A DNA stretch of 64,000 nucleotides from Eledone cirrhosa (lineage: Eukaryota): assembly GCA_964016885.1 (NCBI GenBank), contig OZ024762.1:12090001-12154000 (forward strand). Reading direction: 5' to 3'. The notes beneath the pieces were generated by a model that saw only the letters and a list, made by a program, of their open reading frames with translations, was not told the origin of the DNA and made no database searches. The position numbers and the translations under genes are program-made. Shown here piece after piece: positions 3,922-49,769 of the stretch. How positions within the stretch are numbered: the first letter of the stretch is position 1; each line of letters begins with the position of its first letter.

Positions 3922-5408
3922 TATATAAAATGTCTGACTTACTGTAGTCATTTTGGAATAGCATTTAGAAAAAAACATGTTTTAGGAATATTTAATTTAG
4001 TAGATTTAAAAATACTGTGTAAAAATAACAGATTTCATATTTTAACCTTAGTTTCTCCTCTCAAATGTTTTGTGACTGTCTCCCCCATTTCTTTTCAGGG
4101 ATATATTTCAGTAACCCCTTCCCCCATCCACCCATCATATTGCAAAGGTAATGAAAAATAACTCTCTGAAAATTAAATTAGAATGTGGTTTATTTATATT
4201 TTATTAAAGCATTTATTAACCCCTTAGCATTTAAACCGGCCGAATCCAGCCAGAATTCTCTCACCTCTTTCAGTTCACACTGGCTGGAACCAGGTTATGG
4301 CATTGTTCTCAAAATAAATAACATCAAAATCTCATAGATTCCATATTATGTTAGATAAAGTCTTTACCGTGAAAATACAATAGTATATATAGAGTAATGT
4401 AAATGTTATGTGAGGTAAAGCCTTTACTGTGAAAATACAATAGTATATATAGAATAATGTAAATGTTATGTGAGATATTATGTGAGGTAAAGCCTTTACC
4501 GTGAAAATACAATAGTATATATAGAGTAATGTAAATGTTATGTGAGGTAAAGCCTTTACTGTGGAAATACAATAGTATATATAGAGTAATATAAATGTTA
4601 TGTGAGGTAAAGCCTTTACTGTGAAAATACAATATTATATATAGAGTAATATAAATGTTATGTGAGATATTATGCGAGGTAAAGCCTTTACTGTGAAAAT
4701 ACAATAGTATATATAGAGTAATGTAAATGTTATTCAGGTATTATGTGAGGTAAAGCCTTTACTGTGAAAATGCAATAGTATATATAGAGTAATGTAAATG
4801 TTATGTGAGGTATTATGTGAGATAAAGCCTTTACTGTGAAAATGCAATAGTATATATAGAGTAATGTAAATGTTATGTGAGGTAAAGTAGCAGCTCTACC
4901 TGGATTGACTCTCTGATCTCTGAACTACAAATCTGTTCAATGATTCTTTATTGAGACATTCTAACCACATATCGGAGTTGTGATCTCTCAATTCAGAGAA
5001 GAAGCAGCTCTACCTGGAATGACTCTTTAATCTTCGAGCTACATACTTTATGGGATAGACATAACTATTAAATTACCATCAATCTTGAAAAAATTAATCA
5101 GTAAATCAATCGACATTGCCGGTTTGTTTTGCCCATAAAAAACTCTTTCTTCCCAAAATATTTAATATTTTCTTCTCTGTTATTTTCTGATGTTTTTAAT
5201 AATTATATTTAATAATTTTAATAATTAACTAATTTTAACCATTTTTTGTGTTTTTAGTGGTTCACAATGGAGTTGGTGGTATGTGGTTGTGTTTGGAATT
5301 ACACCCTGACTGAAAAATATAGTTTATTAATATCGTAAGTTGATATATCTATTTTTATCTCTTTATCAAAAAAAAAAAAAAAAACACCTGACCCCCCCCC
5401 CCCCCCCC

Positions 5409-5907: not shown

Positions 5908-5968
<61 letters not shown>

Positions 5969-5971
<3 letters not shown>

Positions 5972-6156
5972 AAAAAGAAGTTGAAAATGCAATTGGTGTG
6001 TTTAAAAAGGTTTATTTACAATAATTTAAAACTTTACTGGTTTCACAAGTTTCATGGTTTTCAAAAGTTAGAGATGGAGAGATGTGTGGCTATGCCAACT
6101 TGTAACTATTTTTCCTATATTTATATGTGGAATATATTAAATAAAAACCTTTACTT

Positions 6157-6160
<4 letters not shown>
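5969..6160 (-). mobile_element. Diverged copy of the U3:A8-hammerhead-bearing element, inserted in (TA)n
   Basis: Aligns by eye to 43206-43320 (ggaaaa..gaaaatgcaa..tttac.ggtttcaca..tcaaaagt..agatggag). Confidence 0.6.
6030..6069 (-). ncRNA. Minimal type I hammerhead-like motif, U3:A8 core variant
   Basis: Minus strand reads aactt-TTGAAAA-ccatgaaacttgt-GAAA-ccag-TA-aagtt. It sits in a diverged copy of the element at 43206-44035. Confidence 0.55.
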
Positions 6161-6193
<33 letters not shown>

Positions 6194-6233
6194 CTGAGGT
6201 GTTGGTATACAACCGACATATACTCAAAATCTC

Positions 6234-6262
<29 letters not shown>

Positions 6263-6264
<2 letters not shown>

Positions 6265-6543
6265 CATCATCATATGTCCGGTTTTCCCTGCTTGCAAGGG
6301 TAGGATGGGTCCTATTCAGCACAGCATCTCTCCATTCGTCACAGTCCTTCGTCATCTCCTCGGTGAGTCTCAGCGATCTGAGGTCAGCTCTCACCACTTC
6401 CACCCATGTTTTTCGTGGTCTTCTTCTACTGAATCTTCCTTCTACTGGGATTTCTTGGCACTTCTTTACCCAACGGTCATCCTCCATGCGCATCACATGT
6501 CCATACCAACGGAGTCCTCTCTCCTGCACACTACAGGAGGGAA
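6263..6543 (-). mobile_element. RTE LINE 3' fragment (second family)
   Basis: ERGLRWYGHVMRMEDDRWVKKC...RPRKTWVEVVRADL plus (GAT)n tail. Confidence 0.88.
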
Positions 6544-6606
6544 GACATATATATATATATATATATATAATATATAAGATCAAAAGATGGTTAAAAGAGT
6601 TCCATG

Positions 6607-6677
6607 TATTTTATTATGCGCATTTCAAAAACAAATATCATCATGCAATAACATTTGCGTTTTCGTCAGATAAAATA
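6607..6677 (-). ncRNA. Type I hammerhead ribozyme (Penelope-like element associated)
   Basis: Minus strand reads tattttat-CTGACGA-aaacgcaaatgttat(tgcatg)atgatatttgttttt-GAAA-tgcgca-TA-ataaaata. This gives an 8-bp stem I, a long stem II, a palindromic stem III (atgcgcat) and an AUA cleavage triplet. Confidence 0.85.
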
Positions 6678-6799: not shown

Positions 6800-7132
6800 A
6801 TCATTATCATTATCATCATTTTACATCCACTTTTCCCTGCTTGCAAGGGTGGGACGGGAACTGATTCTGGCTTGATTTCTACAGCTGGATGCCCTTCCTA
6901 ACACCTCATTTACAGTGAGTGCTGGGTGCTTTTTTGCCGTGGCACCTCCACAACCACTTTGCAGTGGAATGATAGGGACCCCAGTCCCTATCATCTCATT
7001 TCTACAGCTGAGTAAACTGGAGCAATGTGAAATAAAGTGTCTTGCTCAAGGAAACAACACATCACCCAGTCTGAGAATTGAACTCACAACCTTTCGATTG
7101 CAAGACCAATGCTCTAACCACTGAGCCATGTG

Positions 7133-7680: not shown

Positions 7681-8328
7681 CACACACACACAAATACTGT
7701 TACCTCTTGCTGAGTGGGTCTCTCTCTCTCTCACTCCTCCCTCTCTCATTTTTACTGTTTTTCCTCTTTTTCCTGCTGAAAAAATCAAAGCTAAATTCTA
7801 TATAAATAAATATTTAATTCAACAGTTAATTAGAATTTTATTTAATTAACTTCACGTTTTACAAGTTTTATGTAAGTCTCTGTATCATCATCATCATCAT
7901 CATACCTCCATTTTCTCTGCTAGCGAAAGTTATATATATATATATATATATATGATTTGCTCCCGAAATGGTTTAAGCTTAGTCATCGAGGAAAGAATTC
8001 CTACAATAATAAATAAATTTATATATATACACATACACAGACACATACACACATATATATTTACGCATATATATATATACACACACACATACATTGAAAA
8101 TAAAACCAAACACTGCTAATTATAACTTCTTCACCTACAATTATCTGTTTTTGTATTTGAAAACGAATTACTTTATACTATATATATATAGAAGGAGTAG
8201 CATCTGAAACGTCAAGACCCTCTTCCTGCTATTTCAAGTGTTAAACTAATATATTCCTTCCATATACTGTACCGATCGTGTTGCTATTTCTGTTTACTTT
8301 TAATATATATATATATATATATACATAT

Positions 8329-9086: not shown

Positions 9087-9290
9087 GCAGAGGTTATATT
9101 TAATTTGTTGGGATTCAACAAGCGAATTTCAACCGTTGAGGTTATCTTTTTTCCGGGTATGTCAATATTTATTTATAAAACAAATCTGTATTTTATCTGA
9201 TGAAAGTGCACCATAATTTACTTTGGTCGCCCTTGAAATATGTATAATAAAATAAATATGGTTTTATAAATATAGTTTCCATTTATTAAT
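9087..9290 (+). mobile_element. Penelope-like element 3'/pseudo-LTR remnant
   Basis: TA-flanked fragment with LLGFNKR (similar to the PLE ORF C-terminal LLNKR motif) followed by a hammerhead. A homologous copy is at 26535-26695. Confidence 0.6.
9189..9254 (+). ncRNA. Type I hammerhead ribozyme in Penelope-like remnant
   Basis: tattttat-CTGATGA-aagtgcacca(taatttactt)tggtcgccctt-GAAA-tatgta-TA-ataaaata. Stem I is a perfect 8 bp; stem II is imperfect. Confidence 0.8.
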
Positions 9291-9335
9291 ATATTGTATA
9301 TCTATATCTATATATATATATATATATATCTATAA

Positions 9336-11877: not shown

Positions 11878-12709
11878 ATCATCATCATCATCATCATCAT
11901 CAACGTTTAACGTCCGTGTTCCACGCTTGCATGGGTTTGGACGGGGGTAGTCCCACTTGAGGCAAGAGTGATTGTCTTGCTCGCATAGGACTGTCTGGCA
12001 GGTTTTCTACAGTTGGATGCCCTTCCTAACACCAACCACATTTACAGTGTGGGTCTGGGAGGTTTTTACCGTGTTGCCTACACGGCCACATTACAGCGTG
12101 GACTGTGTGTTTTTTTGTCGTGACACCTACACGATCTCATTTGTTTCGGCCTGGATGGCGCGGCACCAACATAACTTTACATAGAACGGGGTGGTGTGGA
12201 TGGGGTGGGGGTGGTGGCGGGACGGGGTGTAGTTTGTTAGAGATGCCTACTGGCAAGGCGGGTCTTCTCTGTTACTGAGTACCGCCAAAGGTCACGGTCC
12301 AGTGACATTGTCTTGGAGAGGTGTAAGTGTGTGAGGTCGGAGTTTATCAGCTCATCCCATGTTTTTCTAGGTCTGCCTATTCCGTGGCTACCGTCTATCT
12401 TTATTGCCCTGCACTTTTTAATACAGCTATCGACTTTCATGCGCATCACATGTCCATACCAACGCAGCCTTCTCTCGAGTAAACAACATCTGATCCCTCT
12501 TATCTCTAATTTTTTCCTTAGTTCGTTTATGCTTTGCCGTTCACGTATATTACTGTTACACATCCAGCGGAGCATGCAAGCTTCGTTCCTCTCTAGTCTG
12601 CGTATATCCTCTGCACACAATGCCCAGGTCTCACTACCATGCAACATTGCTGTTCGTATGCAGGCATCGTACAACCTGCCTTTCATTTTTAGGGAGAACC
12701 CTTTAGCAG

Positions 12710-14364: not shown

Positions 14365-15215
14365 CGTTCCATAGAGTGTGTAGCTCGGAGATCAGAGAGT
14401 CACTCCAGGTAGAGCTGCTACTTCTCCGAATTGAGAGACCACAGCTTCGATACTTTGGACATGTGGTTAGAATATCTCAGGAAAGAATCGCTGGACAAAT
14501 TTGTACCCCAGAGATCAGAGAGTCACTCCAGGTAGAGCAGCTACTACTCTGAATTGAGAGATCACAGCTCTGATACTATGGACATGTGGTTAGAATGTCT
14601 CAGGAAAGAATCGCTGGACAAATTTGTACCCCAGAGATCAGAGAGTCACTCCAGGTAGAGCAGCTACTACTCTGAATTGAGAGATCACAGCTCTGATACT
14701 ATGGACATGTGGTTAGAATGTCTCAGGAAAGAATCGCTGGACAAATTTGTACCCCAGAGATCAGAGAGTCACTCCAGGTAGAGCAGCTACTACTCTGAAT
14801 TGAGAGATCACAGCTCTGATACTATGGACATGTGGTTAGAATGTCTCAGGAAAGAATCGCTGGACAAATTTGTACCCCAGAGATCAGAGATCAGAGAGTC
14901 ACTCCAGGTAGAGCAGCTACTATTCTGAATTGAGAGATCACAGCTCCAATATTATGGACATGTGGTTAGAATGTCTCAGGAAAGAATCGCTGGACAGATT
15001 TTATGGGCAAGACCAACTGGCAGGAGACCCAGGGGTAGATCCTGAGCAAGATGTTTGGATAACATCCATGAGCTTGGCTGGTCACACTTGGGGATCCAGC
15101 TGGATCAGTTGAAGATGGTTGCTTCTGACAGGACCTGTTGGAGGGAGTTTGAGGTCTCTGACCCTACCAGGATCTTCTCAGGAATAATTTGGAGAAGAAG
15201 AAAAAGATGGATGTA
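14365..15215 (+). mobile_element. Expander/Rex3-like RTE LINE 3' fragment with internal 123-bp tandem array
   Basis: Encodes IERSQL.YYGHVVRMSQERIAGQILWARPTGRRPRGR...DNIHELGWSHLGIQLDQL and has a GAAGAA-type tail. About 5 copies of a 123-bp unit. Confidence 0.85.
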
Positions 15216-19744: not shown

Positions 19745-21000
19745 TGAGTAGCTTAGAGATGAGAGACTCATACCAGGTAGAGCTGGTATTTCACTGAACT
19801 GAGAGATCACAGCTCTGATACTATGGACATGTGGTTAAAATGTCTAAGGAAAAACCCTCTGAATTGAGAGATCACAGCTCTGATACTATGGGCATGTGGT
19901 TAGAATGTCTCAGGAAAGAATCACTGGACAGATTTGTAGCTCAGAGATTAGAGAGTCACTCCAGTTAGAGCCACTACTTCTCCGAATTGAGAAAAGAAAG
20001 CTCTGATACTATGGACATGTGGTTAGAATGTCTGAGGAAAGAATCTTTGGATTGAGAGATCACAGCTCCGATACTACAGACATGTGGTTAGAATGTCTCA
20101 GGAAAGAATCTCTGAATTAAGGGATCTCAGCTCTGATACTACAGACATGTGCTTAGAATGTCTCAGGAAAGAATCTCTGAATTGAGAGACCACAGATCTG
20201 ATACTATAGACATGTGGTTAGAATGTCTCAGGAAAGAATCTCTGAATTAAGGGATCTCAGCTCTGATACTACAGACATGTGCTTAGAATGTCTCAGGAAA
20301 GAATCTCTGAATTGAGAGATTACAGCTCTGATACTACAGACATGTGGTTAGAATGACTCAGGAAAGAATCTCTGAATTGAGAGATCACAGCTCTGATACT
20401 ACAGACATGTGGTTAGAATGACTCAGGAAAGAATCTCTGAATTAAGAGATCTCAGCTCTGATACTACAGACATGTGGTTAGAATGTCTCAGGAAAGAATC
20501 TCTGAATTGAGAGATCACAGCTCTGATACTACAGACATGTGGTTAGAATGTCTCAGGAAAAAATCTCTGAATTAAGAGATCTCAGCTCTGATACTACAGA
20601 CATGTGGTTAGAATGACTCAGGAAAGAATCTCTGAATTAAGAGATCTCAGCTCTGATACTACAGACATGTGGTTAGAATGACTCAGGAAAGAATCTCTGA
20701 ATTGAGAGATTACAGCTCTGATACTACAGACATGTGGTTAGAATGACTCAGGAAAGAATCTCTGAATTGAGAGATCACAGCTCTGATACTACAGACATGT
20801 GGTTAGAATGTCTCAGGAAAGAATCACTGTCAGATTTTACATGCAAAAACCAACTGGCAGGAGACCCAGGGGTAGGCCCCGAGTAAAGATGGTTGGATAA
20901 CATCCATGAGCTTGGTTGGTCTTACTTGGGGATACAGCCGGATCAGTTGGAGAAGGTTGCTTCTAAGAGGATCTTCTTGAGGAAGTATTTGAGGACTCTG
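19745..21000 (+). mobile_element. Expander/Rex3-like LINE fragment with 65-bp tandem array
   Basis: Same family as 14365-15215. The unit gaattgagagatcacagctctgatactacagacatgtggttagaatgtctcaggaaagaatctct is repeated about 12 times. Confidence 0.85.
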
Positions 21001-24044: not shown

Positions 24045-24502
24045 TGTTATCCAACCATTTTGCTCGAGGTCTACCCCTGTGTCTCCAGCCAGTTGGTTTT
24101 TCCCCCCTTAAAATCTGTCGAGTGATTCTTTCCTGAGATATTCTAACCACATGTCCATAGTATCAGAACTGTGATCTCTCAATTCAGAGAAATACTGGCT
24201 CTACCTGGAGTGACTCTCTGATCTCCTGAGACATTCTAACTACATGTCCATAGTATCAGAGCTGTGATCTCTCAATCCAGTGATTCTTTCCTGAGACATT
24301 CTAACTACATGTTCATAGTATCAGAGCTGTGATCTCTCAATCCAGTGATTCTTTCCTGAGACATTCTAACTACATGTCCATAGTATCAGAGCTGTGATCT
24401 CTCAATCCAGTGATTCTTTCCTGAGACATTCTAACTACATGTCCATAGTATCAGAGCTGTGGTCCTTCAATTCGGAGAAGCAGCGGTTCTACCTGGAGCG
24501 AC
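24045..24502 (-). mobile_element. Expander/Rex3-like LINE fragment with 65-bp tandem units
   Basis: Reverse complement of the same family. Confidence 0.8.
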
Positions 24503-26536: not shown

Positions 26537-26695
26537 CAGAAGGGATATTCAATTTATTGGTTATGTCAAATATTTATAAAACATTTTGTATTTTATCTGA
26601 TGATAGCGTACCGATGTTGTCTTGTACCCTTGAAATATATATAATAGAATAAATATGGTTTTATAAATATAGTTTCCATTTATTTAATATCATTG
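26535..26695 (+). mobile_element. Penelope-like pseudo-LTR remnant
   Basis: Homologous to 9087-9290 and contains a hammerhead. Confidence 0.6.
26589..26651 (+). ncRNA. Type I hammerhead ribozyme in Penelope-like remnant (degenerate stem II)
   Basis: tattttat-CTGATGA-tagcgtac...gtaccctt-GAAA-tatata-TA-atagaata. It has the same downstream flank (aaatatggttttataaatatagtttccattt) as the 9189 copy. Confidence 0.7.
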
Positions 26696-27512
26696 TATAT
26701 ATATATATATAACGAAGGAAATGTGGTAAGGAACCAGATGGACCATAACGCACCAAAGTACTCAATACTTAGGTTAGTAGAGTGGGTAATAGGAACAAGT
26801 ATGACCCCGAGCTCTGCCGTTGGGGTCATACTTGTTCCTATATATATATATTACTGAGAGTTATATGAATATATGTGGCCTAGCGCATCACATGTCCGTA
26901 ACAATGAAGTCATCTCCCCTGCACACCACCTCGGATTCCTCTCTCTCTGTATATCATATATCACATAGAGTTATATGAATATATGTGGCCTTGTGGTTAG
27001 GGTGTTGGACTAACAGCGATCTTAATGTCGTTGGTTCAATTCCTGGACTAGGTAGTGTGTTGTGTTCTTGAGCAAAATGTTATAATTATTTTTACGTTAC
27101 TCCAGTAAACCCAGCTGAAAATTAGTACCACCAGTAGCTGGGGTTAACTGTGATGGACATGTGTCCTTTCTAGAAGGAGTTTTGTTCTTTTAGTCAATTA
27201 ACAGTTAGGAAACCACGGTAAACACCGGCTAGATGAGTTTCTTGGCAATGAGGTCGACTTTAGCATTTTTTTATATACAGGGAGTCCCCTCCTCCCCTCC
27301 CAAAAATGTATACACATTTCAACAACATTCTAATCAATATATGTATACATTTTTGGGGGACATCCTGTGTGTATATATATATATGTGTGTGTGTGTGTGT
27401 GAAAGTGTGAGAGAGAGGCAGAGCTTGGATGAGTTGAAGGAGAAGCTGGGTTTAAAAGGAATTCGAGGTGGTGTGTAGGAGAGAAGATTGTTGGTTTGGA
27501 TATGGGTGGACG

Positions 27513-28310
27513 GAGTGCTTTTCATTGTGACACCAGCACTATCACTTTACAGAGAGGACTGGGTGCTTTTCATTGTGACACCAGCACTATCACTTTACAG
27601 AGAGGACTGGGTGCTTTTCATTGTGACACCAGCACTACCACTTTACAGAGAGGACTGGGTGCTTTTCATTGTGACACCAGCACTATCACTTTACAGAGAG
27701 GACTGGGTGCTTTTCATTGTGACACCAACACTACCACATTACAGAGAGGACTAGGTGCTTTTCATTGTGACACCAGCACTATCACTTTACAGAGAGGACT
27801 GGGTGCTTTTCATTGTGACACCAGCACTACCACTTTACAGGGTGGACTGGTGTGACACCAGCACTACCACTTTACAGAGAGGACTGGGTGCTTTTCATTG
27901 TGACACCAGCACTACCACTTTACAGGGTGGACTGGTGTGACACCAGCACTACCACTTTACAGAGAGGACTGAGTGCTTTTCATTGTGACACCAGCACTAC
28001 TACTTTACAGAGAGGACTGGGTGCTTTTTATTGTGACACCAGCACTACCACTTTACAGAGAGGACTGGGTGCTTTTCATTGTGACACCAGCACTACCACT
28101 TTACAGGGTGGACTGGGTGCTTTTCATTGTGACACCAACACTACCACTTTACAGAGAGGACTGGGTGCTTTTCATTGTGACACCAGCACTACCACTTTAC
28201 AGAGAGGACTAGGTGCTTTTCACTGTGACACCAGCACTACCACTTTACAGAGAGGACTGGGTGCTTTTCATCGTGACTCGAGCACTACCACTTTACAGGG
28301 TGGACTGGGT
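27513..28310. repeat. 48-bp minisatellite derived from a SINE/RTE 3' segment
   Basis: Unit gtgcttttcattgtgacaccagcactaccactttacagagaggactgg. Confidence 0.9.
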
Positions 28311-28510: not shown

Positions 28511-29239
28511 AGACTGTGTGTGTGAGAGAGAGACTTTGTGTCTACATGTGTGTGTGTGTGAGAGAGACTGTGTGTGTGTATACCTGTGCAAGTGTGTGTG
28601 TGTGAGTGTATTAGTGTGTATATGTTCAACACATATACACCAATAGCTGTCATCTTTTTAAGCCAGAAAATAGTAATGTGAGGCTGGGTTATGACACAAG
28701 CTTGGAACACACACACACATACACCAACACCCTAGCTATCATCTCTTAGTTATGAAATAGCAACATGTAGCCATAGTTATGATATAAAACACACAACACA
28801 CACACAGCTAGTTACCATTTCTAAGTTATGAAATAGCTCATGTAGGAGCAGCGTTTATACCACAAGCCTGGACAAGTCGTGAATAATTCTTGGGTTTCAA
28901 AACTTCTAGAAGTTGTTCTCTCAACATGTGTCCATGTTCTCCAGGGCTTTTTTTTAAACCTTTACCATTTACATTACTCTATATATACTATTGTATTTTC
29001 ACAGTAAAGGCTTTACTTCACATAACATTTACATTACTCTATATATACTATTGTATTTTCACGGTAAAGACTTTACCTCACATAATATCTCACATAACAT
29101 TTACATTACTCTATATATACTATTGTATTTTCACGGTAAAGACTTTACCTCACATAATATCTCACATAACATTTACATTACTCTATATATACAATTGTAT
29201 TTTCACGGTAAAGACTTTACCTCACATAATATCTTACTG

Positions 29240-42600: not shown

Positions 42601-43254
42601 CTCACAAGACTGACACACCTACATACGTATATATCAGACAGCCACACACACACACACCAGACAGCCACACACATCACAGCCACAGAATCATACACACACA
42701 TGTACAGACAGGCATCAGACAGCCACACACATACATACATAACACACTGCCACACACTTGTAAATGTATAATTTTGGTATACCTGTAATGCCTTGTGGCA
42801 TATTATGTAATGCTGAATCTCCCTGAGAACTATGTTATCAGTGCATGTCTCTAGGGAATGCTTGGACACTTGACCTTTTCATGACCGTATTTCTCATAAA
42901 ACACACTCTATTTTAATTAGTTAATGAAGAATTTTGAGGGATTTACTAAAATTATTAATTAATTCATTACTAAGATAGTAACTTAATGTAGGGTTCTTAT
43001 ATAAAATTATGTTGAATTGGAAACCTTTAAAATGGATGGTTTTATTTCATAGAACCAGAGCTGGTTAAGAGTGCATGTGAATATGGAATGCCCTGTCATT
43101 TACACATGAAATAAATATTACAAGCAGAGCGTTCTGCTGATTGAATCAACTGGAACACTCACCATCAGAAATGATAGAGCCAACAACAGATTCATACACG
43201 ATGATGGAAAAGAAATTGAAAATGCAACTGGAGTCTTTTAAGAATATTTATTTA

Positions 43255-43298
43255 TTTACTTTACCGGTTTCACAGTTCTTATGATTGTCAAAAGTAAA
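43255..43298 (-). ncRNA. Minimal type I hammerhead-like motif, U3:A8 core variant (left arm of inverted repeat)
   Basis: Exact reverse complement of 43943-43986. Confidence 0.65.
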
Positions 43299-43897
43299 AT
43301 TAAGATGGAGGGATTGTGTTTCTGTTGTGGTGCGTCAAAAGTAAAATTAAGATGGAGGGTTTGTGTTTCTGTTGTGGTGCGTCAAAAGTAAAATTAAGAT
43401 GGAGGGTTTGTGTTTCTGTTGTGGTGCGTCAAAAGTAAAATTAAGATGGAGGGTTTGTGTTTCTGTTGTGGTGCGTCAAAAGTAAAATTAAGATGGAGGG
43501 TTTGTGTTTCTGTTGTGGTGCGTCAAAAGTAAAATTAAGATGGAGGGTTTGTGTTTCTGTTGTGGTGCGTCAAAAGTAAAATTAAGATGGAGGGTTTGTG
43601 TTTCTGTTGTGGTGCGTCAAAAGTAAAATTAAGATGGAGGGTTTGTGTTTCTGTTGTGGTGCGTCAAAAGTAAAATTAAGATGGAGGGTTTGTGTTTCTG
43701 TTGTGGTGCGTCAAAAGTAAAATTAAGATGGAGGGTTTGTGTTTCTGTTGTGGTGCGTCAAAAGTAAAATTAAGATGGAGGGTTTGTGTTTCTGTTGTGG
43801 TGCGTCAAAAGTAAAATTAAGATGGAGGGTTTGTGTTTCTGTTGTGGTGCGTCAAAAGTAAAATTAAGATGGAGGGATTGTGTTTCTGTTGTGGTGC
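43287..43897. repeat. 47-bp tandem repeat, 13 near-identical copies
   Basis: Unit gtcaaaagtaaaattaagatggagggtttgtgtttctgttgtggtgc, with no spacers. Confidence 0.95.
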
Positions 43898-43942
43898 GTC
43901 TTGCATCAAACCACAACAGAAACACAAAGCCTCCATCTTAAT

Positions 43943-43986
43943 TTTACTTTTGACAATCATAAGAACTGTGAAACCGGTAAAGTAAA
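43943..43986 (+). ncRNA. Minimal type I hammerhead-like motif, U3:A8 core variant (right arm of inverted repeat)
   Basis: tttactt-TTGACAA-tcataagaactgt-GAAA-ccgg-TA-aagtaaa. This gives a 7-bp stem I, a palindromic stem III (accggt) and a GUA cleavage site; stem II is weak. Confidence 0.65.
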
Positions 43987-44735
43987 TAAATAAATATTCT
44001 TAAAAGACTCCAGTTTCATTTTTAATTTCTTTTCCTTATACTTACACCCAAGTGGAACATCTCTTTTTAAAAAAAAAAACTCATTTTCTTATACATATAT
44101 ATTGTCTTTTCCCTTCTAGCAGGAGTTAGATAAGTCAGCACAGACCTGGCCAGTACTCAAGTGGATCTACTGACCTTCAGACCAGTTGGTGGCCGGCATC
44201 TCACCCATGTACATTCCTTCGCTCTACCAAGTGTATTTTATTGTGGTACCAGCACTAGTGAGTTTGCTATGTCTTTGACACAACTGAAAAGTTCTCCCAA
44301 CCATTCTTTGGCAGGTTTTCTGTGGCTGGTTACCCTTTCTAGTATTTGTAACTGACATGATAAGTGCACCGAGTATACTTTGTGATTGGAAGGGCATCCC
44401 ATTGTAGAAAACTTGCCAAACAAAGCTTTTCAAGGACTTAGCAGCTGTGGGAATGTCTTGTATTTGAGATGAAGGTCCCTGGTTTGCCAGAGAACATGTT
44501 AGAGTGCATGAATGTAAATAAGTGAGATGGAGGTGCTGGGCCCATCTGGGAGGTCAGTGGCATTGCTTCAGTACTGACATGGTCTGTGGTAGTGGCCATC
44601 TGGGAGGTCAGTGGTAGTCTGACATGGTCAGTGAGACTGTCCAACCTTTTCTAGCAGGGCTGTTTAACCCTTTCATGACTGCAACTCTAATGAATTACAC
44701 TCTATTTTAATTAATTAATGTGTGTGTGTGTGTGC

Positions 44736-47425: not shown

Positions 47426-49769
47426 TTTAACCTTTACCATTACATTACTCAATATTTACTATTGTATTTTCACACAGTAAAGGCCTTACCTCACATAATA
47501 TCTCACATTACTCAATATTTATTATTGTATTTTCACTGTAAAGGCTTTACCTCACATACTATTTACATTACTCTATATATACTATTGTATTTTTCACAGT
47601 AAAGGCTTTACCTCACATAACATTTGCATTACTCTATATATACTATTGTATTTTCATGGTAAACACTTTATTTGACCTAATTATCTCACATAATATCGAA
47701 TCTGCGAGATTTTGATATTATTCATGTTGAGAACAATACCTTAACATCGGTATGAGTGACTGTGAACAGCCGGTTTGAACAGAAAGAGGTGAGAGAATTC
47801 TGACCAGATATGGCTGGTTTAAATGTTAATGGGTTAATATATCATCTTTCCTCAGAGATATGTCTTACCAAACCTGGCCAAAAGTGGCTCTGGTTCTATG
47901 AAATATCGGACAAACTGCCTTGTTGTGGTCAACAGTGGTCAGTATAGTGTAACAGCTGGTTTGAACAGAACGAGGTGAAAGAATCCAGCCCGGTTTAAAT
48001 ACTAAATTGTTAACAAATTTCCTCGGCCCTGTAATATATATATTATTATTTCATTGGCAGTATCGGTAGAGGGTCAGACGCCATGCTTTGACGTATAGAG
48101 TTACGGCCCTTGCCATTCTGAGTTCAAATCCCGCCGAGGTTAACTTTGCATTTCATCCTTATGGGTCGATAAAATAAAGTACCAGTAATGCACTGGGTAA
48201 TTGCTGGCCTTGTGCCAAAAGTAGAAACAATTATTATTTCATAGTTATGAGGCCTTATGTTATTTCAGTGTCAAATTTAAAGGGGAAAACAGGTGTTATA
48301 GAACACTTGTAATAAGAAACAAAAACAGGGAGGGGACAATCAAAATAATATCTTACATGAATATGAAGCCCTATTTTGTGCATTAAATGACTAGAAGGTC
48401 CCTTCTATAAATCTACAGCTGCGCTCTCTTAAGTTTCTGTGGCATATATATATATATATATATATCTGTCCAACCCATGCAACTGTGGAAAAAAAGACTA
48501 GCGCCCGAAACGTTAAGGGTCTTTTCCTACTATATCAAGCGTAAAACTAATATATTTCTTCATTGTACTGTGTTGTTTGCTTTGTTATTTGTTTGACTTT
48601 TGCATATATATATATATACACACACTATATTTCTGTATTTGTTTTACAATATTTTTACCATGATATCACTCCTGAAACTAACCTCGTTTTGTGCTACAAA
48701 ATTGGTTTAAGCTGTTTATATCTATCTTTAGAAAAACCTTCCATCATAATTTTATGTAAGAGCTTCTATTAAATTGAGTTCAAAACATCGGATTAACCCT
48801 TTAACATTTACATTACTCTATATATATACTATTGTATTTTCACAGTAAAGACTTTACCTCACATAATATCTCACATAACATTTACATTACTCTATATATA
48901 CTATTGTTTTTTTCACAGTAAAGGCTTTACCTCACATAATATCTCACATAACATTTACATTACTCTATATATACTATTGTTTTTTTCACAGTAAAGGCTT
49001 TACCTCACATAATATCTCACATAACATTTACATTACTCTATATATACTATTGTTTTTTCACAGTAAAGGCTTTACCTCACATAATATCTCGCATAACATT
49101 TAAATTATTCTATATATACTATTGTATTTTCACAGTAAAGGCCTTTACCTCACATAATATCTCACATAACATTTAAATTATTCTATATATACTATTGTAT
49201 TTTCACAGTAAAGGCTTTACCTCACATAACATTTACATTACTCTATATTTACTATTGTATTTTCCTGGTAAATACTTTATCTCACATAATTTTGAATCTA
49301 TGAGATTTTGATGTTATTTATTTTGAGAACAATACCTTAACATAAGTATGAGCAGCCAGTTATGGCCAGTTTGAGGCAAAGACTTTACCATGGAAATACA
49401 ATAGTAAATATAGAATAATGTGAATGGTAAAGGGTTAAGGTGGTGAAACAGCAGAGTAGAACATCAGGTAGAATTCTTTATGGGATTCATTCCGGATCTC
49501 TGCTCTCTGAGTCCCACCAACGTCAACTTTGCTTTTCATCCTTTCGAGGTCGATAAAAAAAAGTACCAGTCTAATACTGGGGTTGATTCTTCCTCTGTTT
49601 CTCTTTCTCATTTCCTCTCTCTCATTTTCTATCTTTCTCTGAAAGAAATCATCTGTATTCAGGCCTGGAGAGCGATGGGCTGCACCAGGCTTTAAATGCC
49701 CAAGAAATACCGTATCACATTTCAGTGCCCCTAAAAAGGAGTTACGGGACCATACATACATATCAACAC

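Follow-up and report, generated by a model that had tools for sequence, protein, structure and literature searches.

Minimal type I hammerhead ribozymes are known from metazoan Penelope-like repeats, where according to PMC4209133 their activity is low and seen only in dimers. In that source a very short palindromic helix III implies action as a dimer, the flanks are U-rich on the 5' side and AU-rich on the 3' side, most hammerheads are single truncated copies, and pairs on opposite strands lie 100-700 bp apart. The pair G10.1-C11.1 is conserved, an extra base follows A9, and helix II has at least 3 pairs (7-8 in S. mansoni). A U3-A8 variant was found there through Cercyon, a Penelope-like element of S. 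mansoni (Schistosoma), with about 1,300 descriptor hits; in our own reading of the PDF text the U3-A8 core occurs in 2 of the 56 rows of Fig. S3.

Natural U3-A8 cores, stems II of 2 bp and the mismatch U10.1.U11.1 have each been reported in PMC3088659 (Perreault et al. 2011), along with previous evidence that hammerheads in which 3:8 covaries are active in vitro, and in the accessible parts of that paper the three features are not seen combined in one animal repeat. U.U is reported there as tolerated, candidates with a mismatched 10.1-11.1 position were rejected unless activity was measured, and the tested example with a stem II of 1 bp was pseudoknot-dependent. According to PMC8557442, inverted truncated copies, tails and a bias for (TA)n are Penelope-like traits, and the 'HHR_core' of Naiad elements, searched for with a cuganga core, has halves which lie 7-17 nt apart and fail stem descriptors. 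PMC11167929 describes fixed internal initiation, extension of both strands and a protein-dependent cleavage that is dispensable in vitro.

In a 64-kb stretch of the genome of Eledone cirrhosa (GCA_964016885.1, contig OZ024762.1, positions 12,090,001 to 12,154,000, forward strand), in the following called the window, a short repeat with a U3:A8 core is present in three copies, one at 6 kb and two at 43 kb. The DNA as a whole resembles that of an animal genome rich in microsatellites. The repeat resembles the hammerheads of PMC4209133 in being of type I, in the very short palindromic helix III, in U3-A8, in its flanks, in its truncated copies and in its opposite-strand pair. In contrast to them it has a stem II of only 2 bp, preceded by a pyrimidine.U mismatch, and a linked ORF was not found. 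With the Naiad 'HHR_core' the repeat shares core halves that fail stem descriptors, whereas its core reads UUGANAA and its stem I is good. Inverted, 5'-truncated copies and, at one of the two loci, a (TA)n setting are in common with the (TA)n-targeting Penelope-like clades of PMC8557442, but without an ORF in the frames scanned the clade of the repeat cannot be assigned. The U3:A8 core itself is already published; judging from sequence, what appears unusual is solely its occurrence together with a stem II that is almost missing. No paper on this feature combination or on octopus hammerheads was found in our literature search, most subscription papers lying outside its coverage.

The U3:A8 repeat and its copies in the window

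The motif at 6 kb lies on the minus strand, which an earlier first-pass annotation of this DNA had left unstated, with U3 at 6064 and A17 at 6035. The features of the three copies and their surroundings are as follows.

6030..6069, minus strand (read 6069-6030): type I minimal hammerhead-like motif with a U3:A8 core
6069-6065, minus strand: 5' strand of stem I, AACUU
6064-6058, minus strand: core U3-U4-G5-A6-A7-A8-A9, reading UUGAAAA
6057-6045, minus strand: spacer of 13 nt
6044-6040, minus strand: G12-A13-A14-A15.1-C15.2, followed by the 2-nt loop CA
6037-6035, minus strand: G16.2-U16.1-A17, reading GUA
6034-6030, minus strand: 3' strand of stem I, AAGUU
5970..6034, minus strand: 65-nt 3' tail downstream of A17; its end, next to (TA)n, is the terminus also seen in both copies at 43 kb
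6070..6102, minus strand: 5' flank homologous to the 43-kb copies, 24/31 aligned sites identical
6103..6160, no strand assigned: remainder of the island, lacking at 43 kb and perhaps not part of the element
5912..5969, no strand assigned: (TA)n run bordering the element on its 3' side, likely insertion target
6161..6191, no strand assigned: (TA)n run at the opposite edge of the island
43206..43331, minus strand: homologous copy A, left arm of an inverted pair, U3 at 43291 and A17 at 43262
43334..43897, minus strand: 12 extra tandem 47-nt units, each a copy of the 5' flank, the 5' strand of stem I and the core to position 7
43910..44035, plus strand: homologous copy B, right arm, U3 at 43950 and A17 at 43979

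Copies A and B form one inverted repeat of 126 nt, which is 97% complementary and arranged head-to-head, with the two U3:A8 motifs on opposite strands about 660 nt apart. Copy A has a stem I of 7 bp, a U.U mismatch followed by a 2-bp stem II, a palindromic helix III and a tail of 56 nt. Since the two 43-kb copies are identical across the 40-nt motif and are arms of one inverted repeat, the family represents two independent haplotypes only. All three copies end at the same 3' terminus (65, 56 and 56 nt past A17), and their outer flanks differ. An inverted, 5'-truncated partner copy is given by 43206-43331 and 43910-44035; at 6 kb such a partner is not clear. In the remainder of the 6-kb island two short stretches, 6109-6125 and 6153-6161, echo the terminus and the 5' half of the core, respectively, in inverted orientation, and for 6095-6160 no similarity to other hammerhead-type tails was seen.

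The 6-kb copy lies within an island of 191 nt flanked by (TA)n runs. Such an island thus holds one of the two loci of the family, the 43-kb pair being outside (TA)n. Searches of the window with blastn, nhmmer and a profile of the three copies gave no further family members beyond the three copies and the 12 partial units, the remaining window matches of the profile having E values of at least 1.8. A search of bacterial and archaeal genomes for exact copies of the family motif gave none.

None of the 12 extra units contains a complete ribozyme, each of them ending at core position 7. The repeats at 43206-44035 have an exact period of 47 nt and are possibly due to slippage or to template jumping at a 3-base microhomology. 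A reading as non-LTR retrozyme was rejected for this reason: the retrozymes described in bioRxiv 10.64898/2026.07.22.740005 are likewise non-coding, of type I and likely Penelope-derived, but carry a complete hammerhead per tandem unit.

Core, stems and predicted folding

The core letters U4, G5, A6, N7, A9, G12, A13 and A14, the pair A15.1-U16.1 and H17 are present in all three complete copies. The 3:8 position is a Watson-Crick pair, U3:A8, in 3/3 copies (2 of them distinct), and N7 is C in both 43-kb copies and A at 6 kb. Stem I closes the core with 5 bp at 6 kb and 7 bp at 43 kb, the outer two pairs of the longer stem being missing in the 6-kb copy, for which the cleavage site is predicted between 6035 and 6034.

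Stem II, which the first-pass annotation did not mention, has only 2 bp. In all copies two invariant pairs (C-G and A-U) stand behind a mismatch at 10.1/11.1, the base of the stem, which is C.U at 6 kb and U.U at 43 kb. G10.1-C11.1 is therefore absent, and the energy of the stem is unfavourable with +2.9 kcal/mol at 43 kb and +1.7 kcal/mol at 6 kb. Penelope-type minimal hammerheads have G10.1-C11.1 together with a helix II of at least 3 pairs; the repeat has a mismatch and two pairs. The C.U of the 6-kb copy also differs from the U.U that is tolerated according to PMC3088659. In contrast to the pseudoknot-dependent example of that paper, no pseudoknot is supported here: the best shared helix between loop II and the tail has 4 bp with 1 compensatory change, and as 21% of 20,000 column shuffles equal it, this candidate was dropped as not significant.

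Helix III can form only between two molecules. At 43 kb it is a perfect palindrome in both copies, with a dimer duplex of -8.3 kcal/mol, while the palindrome is lost in the 6-kb copy (+1.4 kcal/mol). With flanks of 40 nt the pairing probability of stem I is at most 0.01 at 6 kb versus 0.17-0.29 at 43 kb. In both motifs taken alone G12 is tied up in the minimum-energy fold, and for the 6-kb motif the folding energy does not surpass that of its shuffles (z +0.92). The architecture of the motif, as read from the letters, is built like that of a Penelope-type dimeric hammerhead. The 6-kb copy is nevertheless not classed as a hammerhead, because it lacks both the 10.1-11.1 pair and the palindrome. 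Two of its nine changes, the C.U at 10.1/11.1 and the loss of the palindrome, are predicted to be harmful, so that the copy reads as a relic.

Two local Rfam scans gave no hammerhead among 6 and 5 matches, respectively, with E values up to 10. No hammerhead was present either among the 150 matches listed of 382 for the whole window, nearly all of which are microsatellite or miRNA artefacts. These negatives carry little weight, since the canonical motif at 26.6 kb was also missed in a local scan.

Conservation and covariation

Between the 6-kb copy and the 43-kb copies 9 of the 40 motif sites differ, and none of the differences falls into the 14 core sites. The claim of the first-pass annotation that UUGA-N-AA, GAAAC and the GUA site are kept in a diverged copy is thus borne out. 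The nine differences are located at 2.5, at N7, at five spacer sites, at one loop-3 site and at 1.5, and they also spare the four inner pairs of stem I. Avoidance of the core within the 40-mer gives p 0.011, or 0.027 without the chosen end pair. Over the whole element the two haplotypes differ by 23 substitutions in 121 aligned sites. Against this substitution rate of the element itself the core alone is borderline (p 0.04-0.07, with n=2 haplotypes), and for the 22 sites of the core plus the four stem I pairs, which contain 0 of the 23 substitutions, p is 0.006-0.013 (Fisher 0.013). Gap columns are distributed as 0 in the 40-nt motif versus 25 in the flanks, the 25 resulting from few events.

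It had also been proposed that conservation resides at exactly the catalytic positions. In that form this is not supported, as the identity of the 3' flank (43/50) lies above that of the motif (31/40) and the core is borderline. Judged from these comparisons, the conservation signal points in the right direction for function, yet it is modest.

Of the modelled pairs 1/10 covaries and 9/10 are invariant. A compensatory pair in stem I does exist, as the proposed covariation of the outer stem I bases implies, but its score is reached in 266 of 500 shuffles and is not significant, and the two outermost pairs are lost at 6 kb. Covariation at 3:8 is not visible within the family, because all three complete copies (2 distinct) are U:A. 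As U3 and A8 are common to haplotypes differing at 23/121 sites, parsimony points to an ancestor with U3:A8 and favours this state over a CUGANGA that would have decayed separately in each lineage. The earlier argument for a real ribozyme family instead of a decayed CUGANGA can be followed to that extent, that is for the ancestral U3:A8 and for the core together with stem I; the core alone supports it less clearly.

Chance expectation was estimated with a general descriptor, which allows any Watson-Crick 3:8 pair and a spacer of 6-30, asks for a stem I of at least 5 pairs and does not require stem II. In 300 local dinucleotide shuffles it gave 0.05 matches per window, or 0.007 with U:A. A pattern built from the motif itself yields 3 matches versus 0.08 expected, a post hoc number in which the 3 are homologous. 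The motif is unlikely by chance in a single window, but not so over the scan of a whole genome.

Canonical hammerheads in the same window

A relaxed scan of the window resulted in 13 rows. Six of these have a perfect core, namely the three U3:A8 copies and three canonical C3:G8 type I minimal hammerheads, which are separate from the U3:A8 family and all situated in (TA)n islands.

6607..6677, minus strand: canonical C3:G8 motif (at 6669)
9189..9254, plus strand: canonical C3:G8 motif (at 9197)
26589..26651, plus strand: canonical C3:G8 motif (at 26597), with U.U at the base of stem II

All three have an 8-bp stem I, a long stem II and a palindromic or near-palindromic helix III, the one at 6669 being palindromic. 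The islands which hold them are at most 250 nt long, and islands of this size account for 8.5% of the sequence outside (TA)n. The motifs at 9.2 kb and 26.6 kb belong to one family (83% identical over 146 nt), and their islands share the first few bases behind the (TA)n run. The motif at 6669 has no detectable flank homology to these two and thus shows the picture expected under real selection for a ribozyme.

Nine comparisons between the tails of U3:A8 and C3:G8 repeats gave 2 results at p ~0.006-0.007, 2 at 0.05-0.07 and 5 that are not significant; for the tail of the 6-kb copy none of three is significant. No similarity across the families was found between the heads. The homology of the two families is therefore not established, and they cannot be counted as 3:8 covariation. 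The best of the nine comparisons is a weak similarity of 43980-44035 to 9247-9300 (p ~0.006); if this likeness is real, the U3:A8 and C3:G8 families would be a true 3:8 covariation pair.

Origin of the repeat

We consider it probable that the repeat is a 3'-end fragment of a Penelope-like retrotransposon, the source RNA of which cleaved itself as a dimer, and that the 6-kb copy is inactive. Core letters, stem I, homology, the shared 3' terminus, the (TA)n flanks and the inverted pair are direct observations, whereas the mechanism is inferred from them. A protein of the element would nick the target, which for the 6-kb copy would be the (TA)n run. Reverse transcription would start internally, at a constant position 56-65 nt past the ribozyme, and halt early, so that a fragment of ~130 nt remains. 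The locus at 43 kb would have arisen when two such cDNAs, begun on opposite strands, were joined head-to-head. Helix III would be formed in the source RNA by two ribozymes that pair via the palindromic ACCGGU, U3:A8 would stand in for the tertiary pair C3:G8, and the 2-bp stem II would stack on the pyrimidine-U mismatch, with cleavage after A17. The 6-kb copy has probably drifted since its insertion, with loss of the palindrome, a new C.U at 10.1/11.1 and a shorter stem I. That the 6-kb copy is the derived state is assumed from function, without an outgroup.

The Penelope-like origin is supported by the shared 3' end, the head-to-head inverted pair and the presence of canonical hammerheads in the same (TA)n-island setting. 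Against it stand a tail of 56-65 nt, which exceeds the 30-40 bp quoted for Penelope-like elements, the fact that neither a linked ORF nor an Rfam match was found in the scans, and the position of the 43-kb pair outside (TA)n. The unfavourable stem II, the sequestered G12, the poor folding of the 6-kb motif and the p of 0.04-0.07 for the core likewise speak against the explanation given above.

The Penelope-like source may also have carried a ribozyme that was already dead, its U3, A8 and collapsed stem II having become established in the master lineage through drift. Copies would then share U3, A8 and the collapse of stem II by descent, stem II is near-absent in both haplotypes, C-to-T and G-to-A are both ordinary transitions, and the conservation of the core is borderline. 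It would also agree with the in vitro insertion, which is unaffected by ribozyme mutants (PMC11167929), and with those Naiad elements that have a core with a 7-17 nt spacer and no fitting stems (PMC8557442). However, the changes at positions 3 and 8 jointly re-establish Watson-Crick pairing, the 43-kb copies have kept both stem I and the palindrome, and none of the nine differences touches any of the 14 core sites or of the four inner pairs of stem I, the motif being free of indels; we regard such a dead source as unlikely. It is quite improbable that the 6-kb copy itself still functions, be it via a protein, a partner ribozyme or another register of stem II. Its 14 core sites are all intact, the Anolis Poseidon ribozyme cleaves only when protein is added (PMC11167929), and the same strand carries a canonical hammerhead 605 nt upstream, but the helix III sequence of that hammerhead differs. 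An alternative stem II register of 4 pairs (A-U, U-G, G-U, A-U) is available after two unpaired bases, yet it costs +3.7 kcal/mol, and both the positive energy of the helix III self-duplex and the low probability of stem I within its flanks argue against a working copy.

The hammerhead letters might finally be an accident in an AT-rich repeat unrelated to Penelope-like elements. The repeat is without a proper stem II, Rfam match or ORF, its 3' flank is conserved as much as the motif, and at 0.007-0.05 per window many matches would be expected across a scanned genome. The palindromic helix III, the fixed nearby terminus and the inverted pair fit a hammerhead element though they are outside the descriptor, as is the (TA)n setting in common with the three canonical hammerheads, and we take a chance look-alike to be very improbable.

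Coming back to the fragment of a self-cleaving Penelope-like element, it is a tentative and rather doubtful step further to propose an active family of animal retroelement hammerheads in which U3:A8 is combined with a stem II of 2 bp seated on a pyrimidine.U mismatch, and in which a ribozyme by itself has no helix III. Such ribozymes would be among the smallest natural self-cleavers and would work only as a dimer or with the element protein. They would be invisible to Rfam and to CUGANGA descriptors and possibly numerous in this genome. If the family cleaves, the known structural minimum for natural animal-retroelement hammerheads would be lowered, standard descriptors would undercount, and a natural comparison of U3:A8 with C3:G8 in one genome would be at hand, bearing on whether such ribozymes matter for retrotransposition at all. 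Without cleavage the family is no more than a common relic of a transposon.

Coding potential and other repeats

In the frames scanned, which cover the smaller part of the window, no RT or GIY-YIG ORF linked to the U3:A8 repeat was found, and Pfam assigned 0 families to the 9 and 10 translated frames. Fragments of about 130-190 nt are, however, too short to be expected to carry the ORF of an element. With phmmer only 3 matches were obtained, which are summed scores on repetitive Ig-like bacterial-type proteins and were judged spurious. A protein-coding cause of the conservation was therefore rejected, although the plus-strand frames look protein-like. An ATG is located inside stem II of the 6-kb copy (window 6055-6026, minus strand), where the 43-kb copies have ATA; the frame stops after nine codons. 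Its position recalls the start of the Anolis Poseidon ORF, which is also in stem II.

The islands 8191-8302 and 48466-48603 are homologous, flanked by (TA)n and contain apparent 3' halves of hammerheads without an intact CUGANGA; they possibly represent a third, more truncated family. Related islands beginning directly after (TA)n are also found at 1157-1270 and 26712-26838, the latter of which ends in a perfect hairpin of ~17 bp at ~26792-26838.

A conserved repeat is present in four copies (7035-7130, 22486, 26434 and 52224), one of which lies beside 7067-7130 (minus strand), where Rfam detects part of a tRNA with 33.6 bits and ARAGORN reports none; this suggests a tRNA-derived SINE. The open frames 6233-6546 and 12237-12707, both on the minus strand, gave 0 Pfam families, and we take them to resemble the C-terminus of RTE-type LINE proteins. 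Dispersed minisatellites occur with 72-nt units (1501-1995, 4343-4887 and 28966-29234), with 65/123-nt units (14388-15001, 19794-20829 and 24224-24461) and with 48-nt units (27508-28310).
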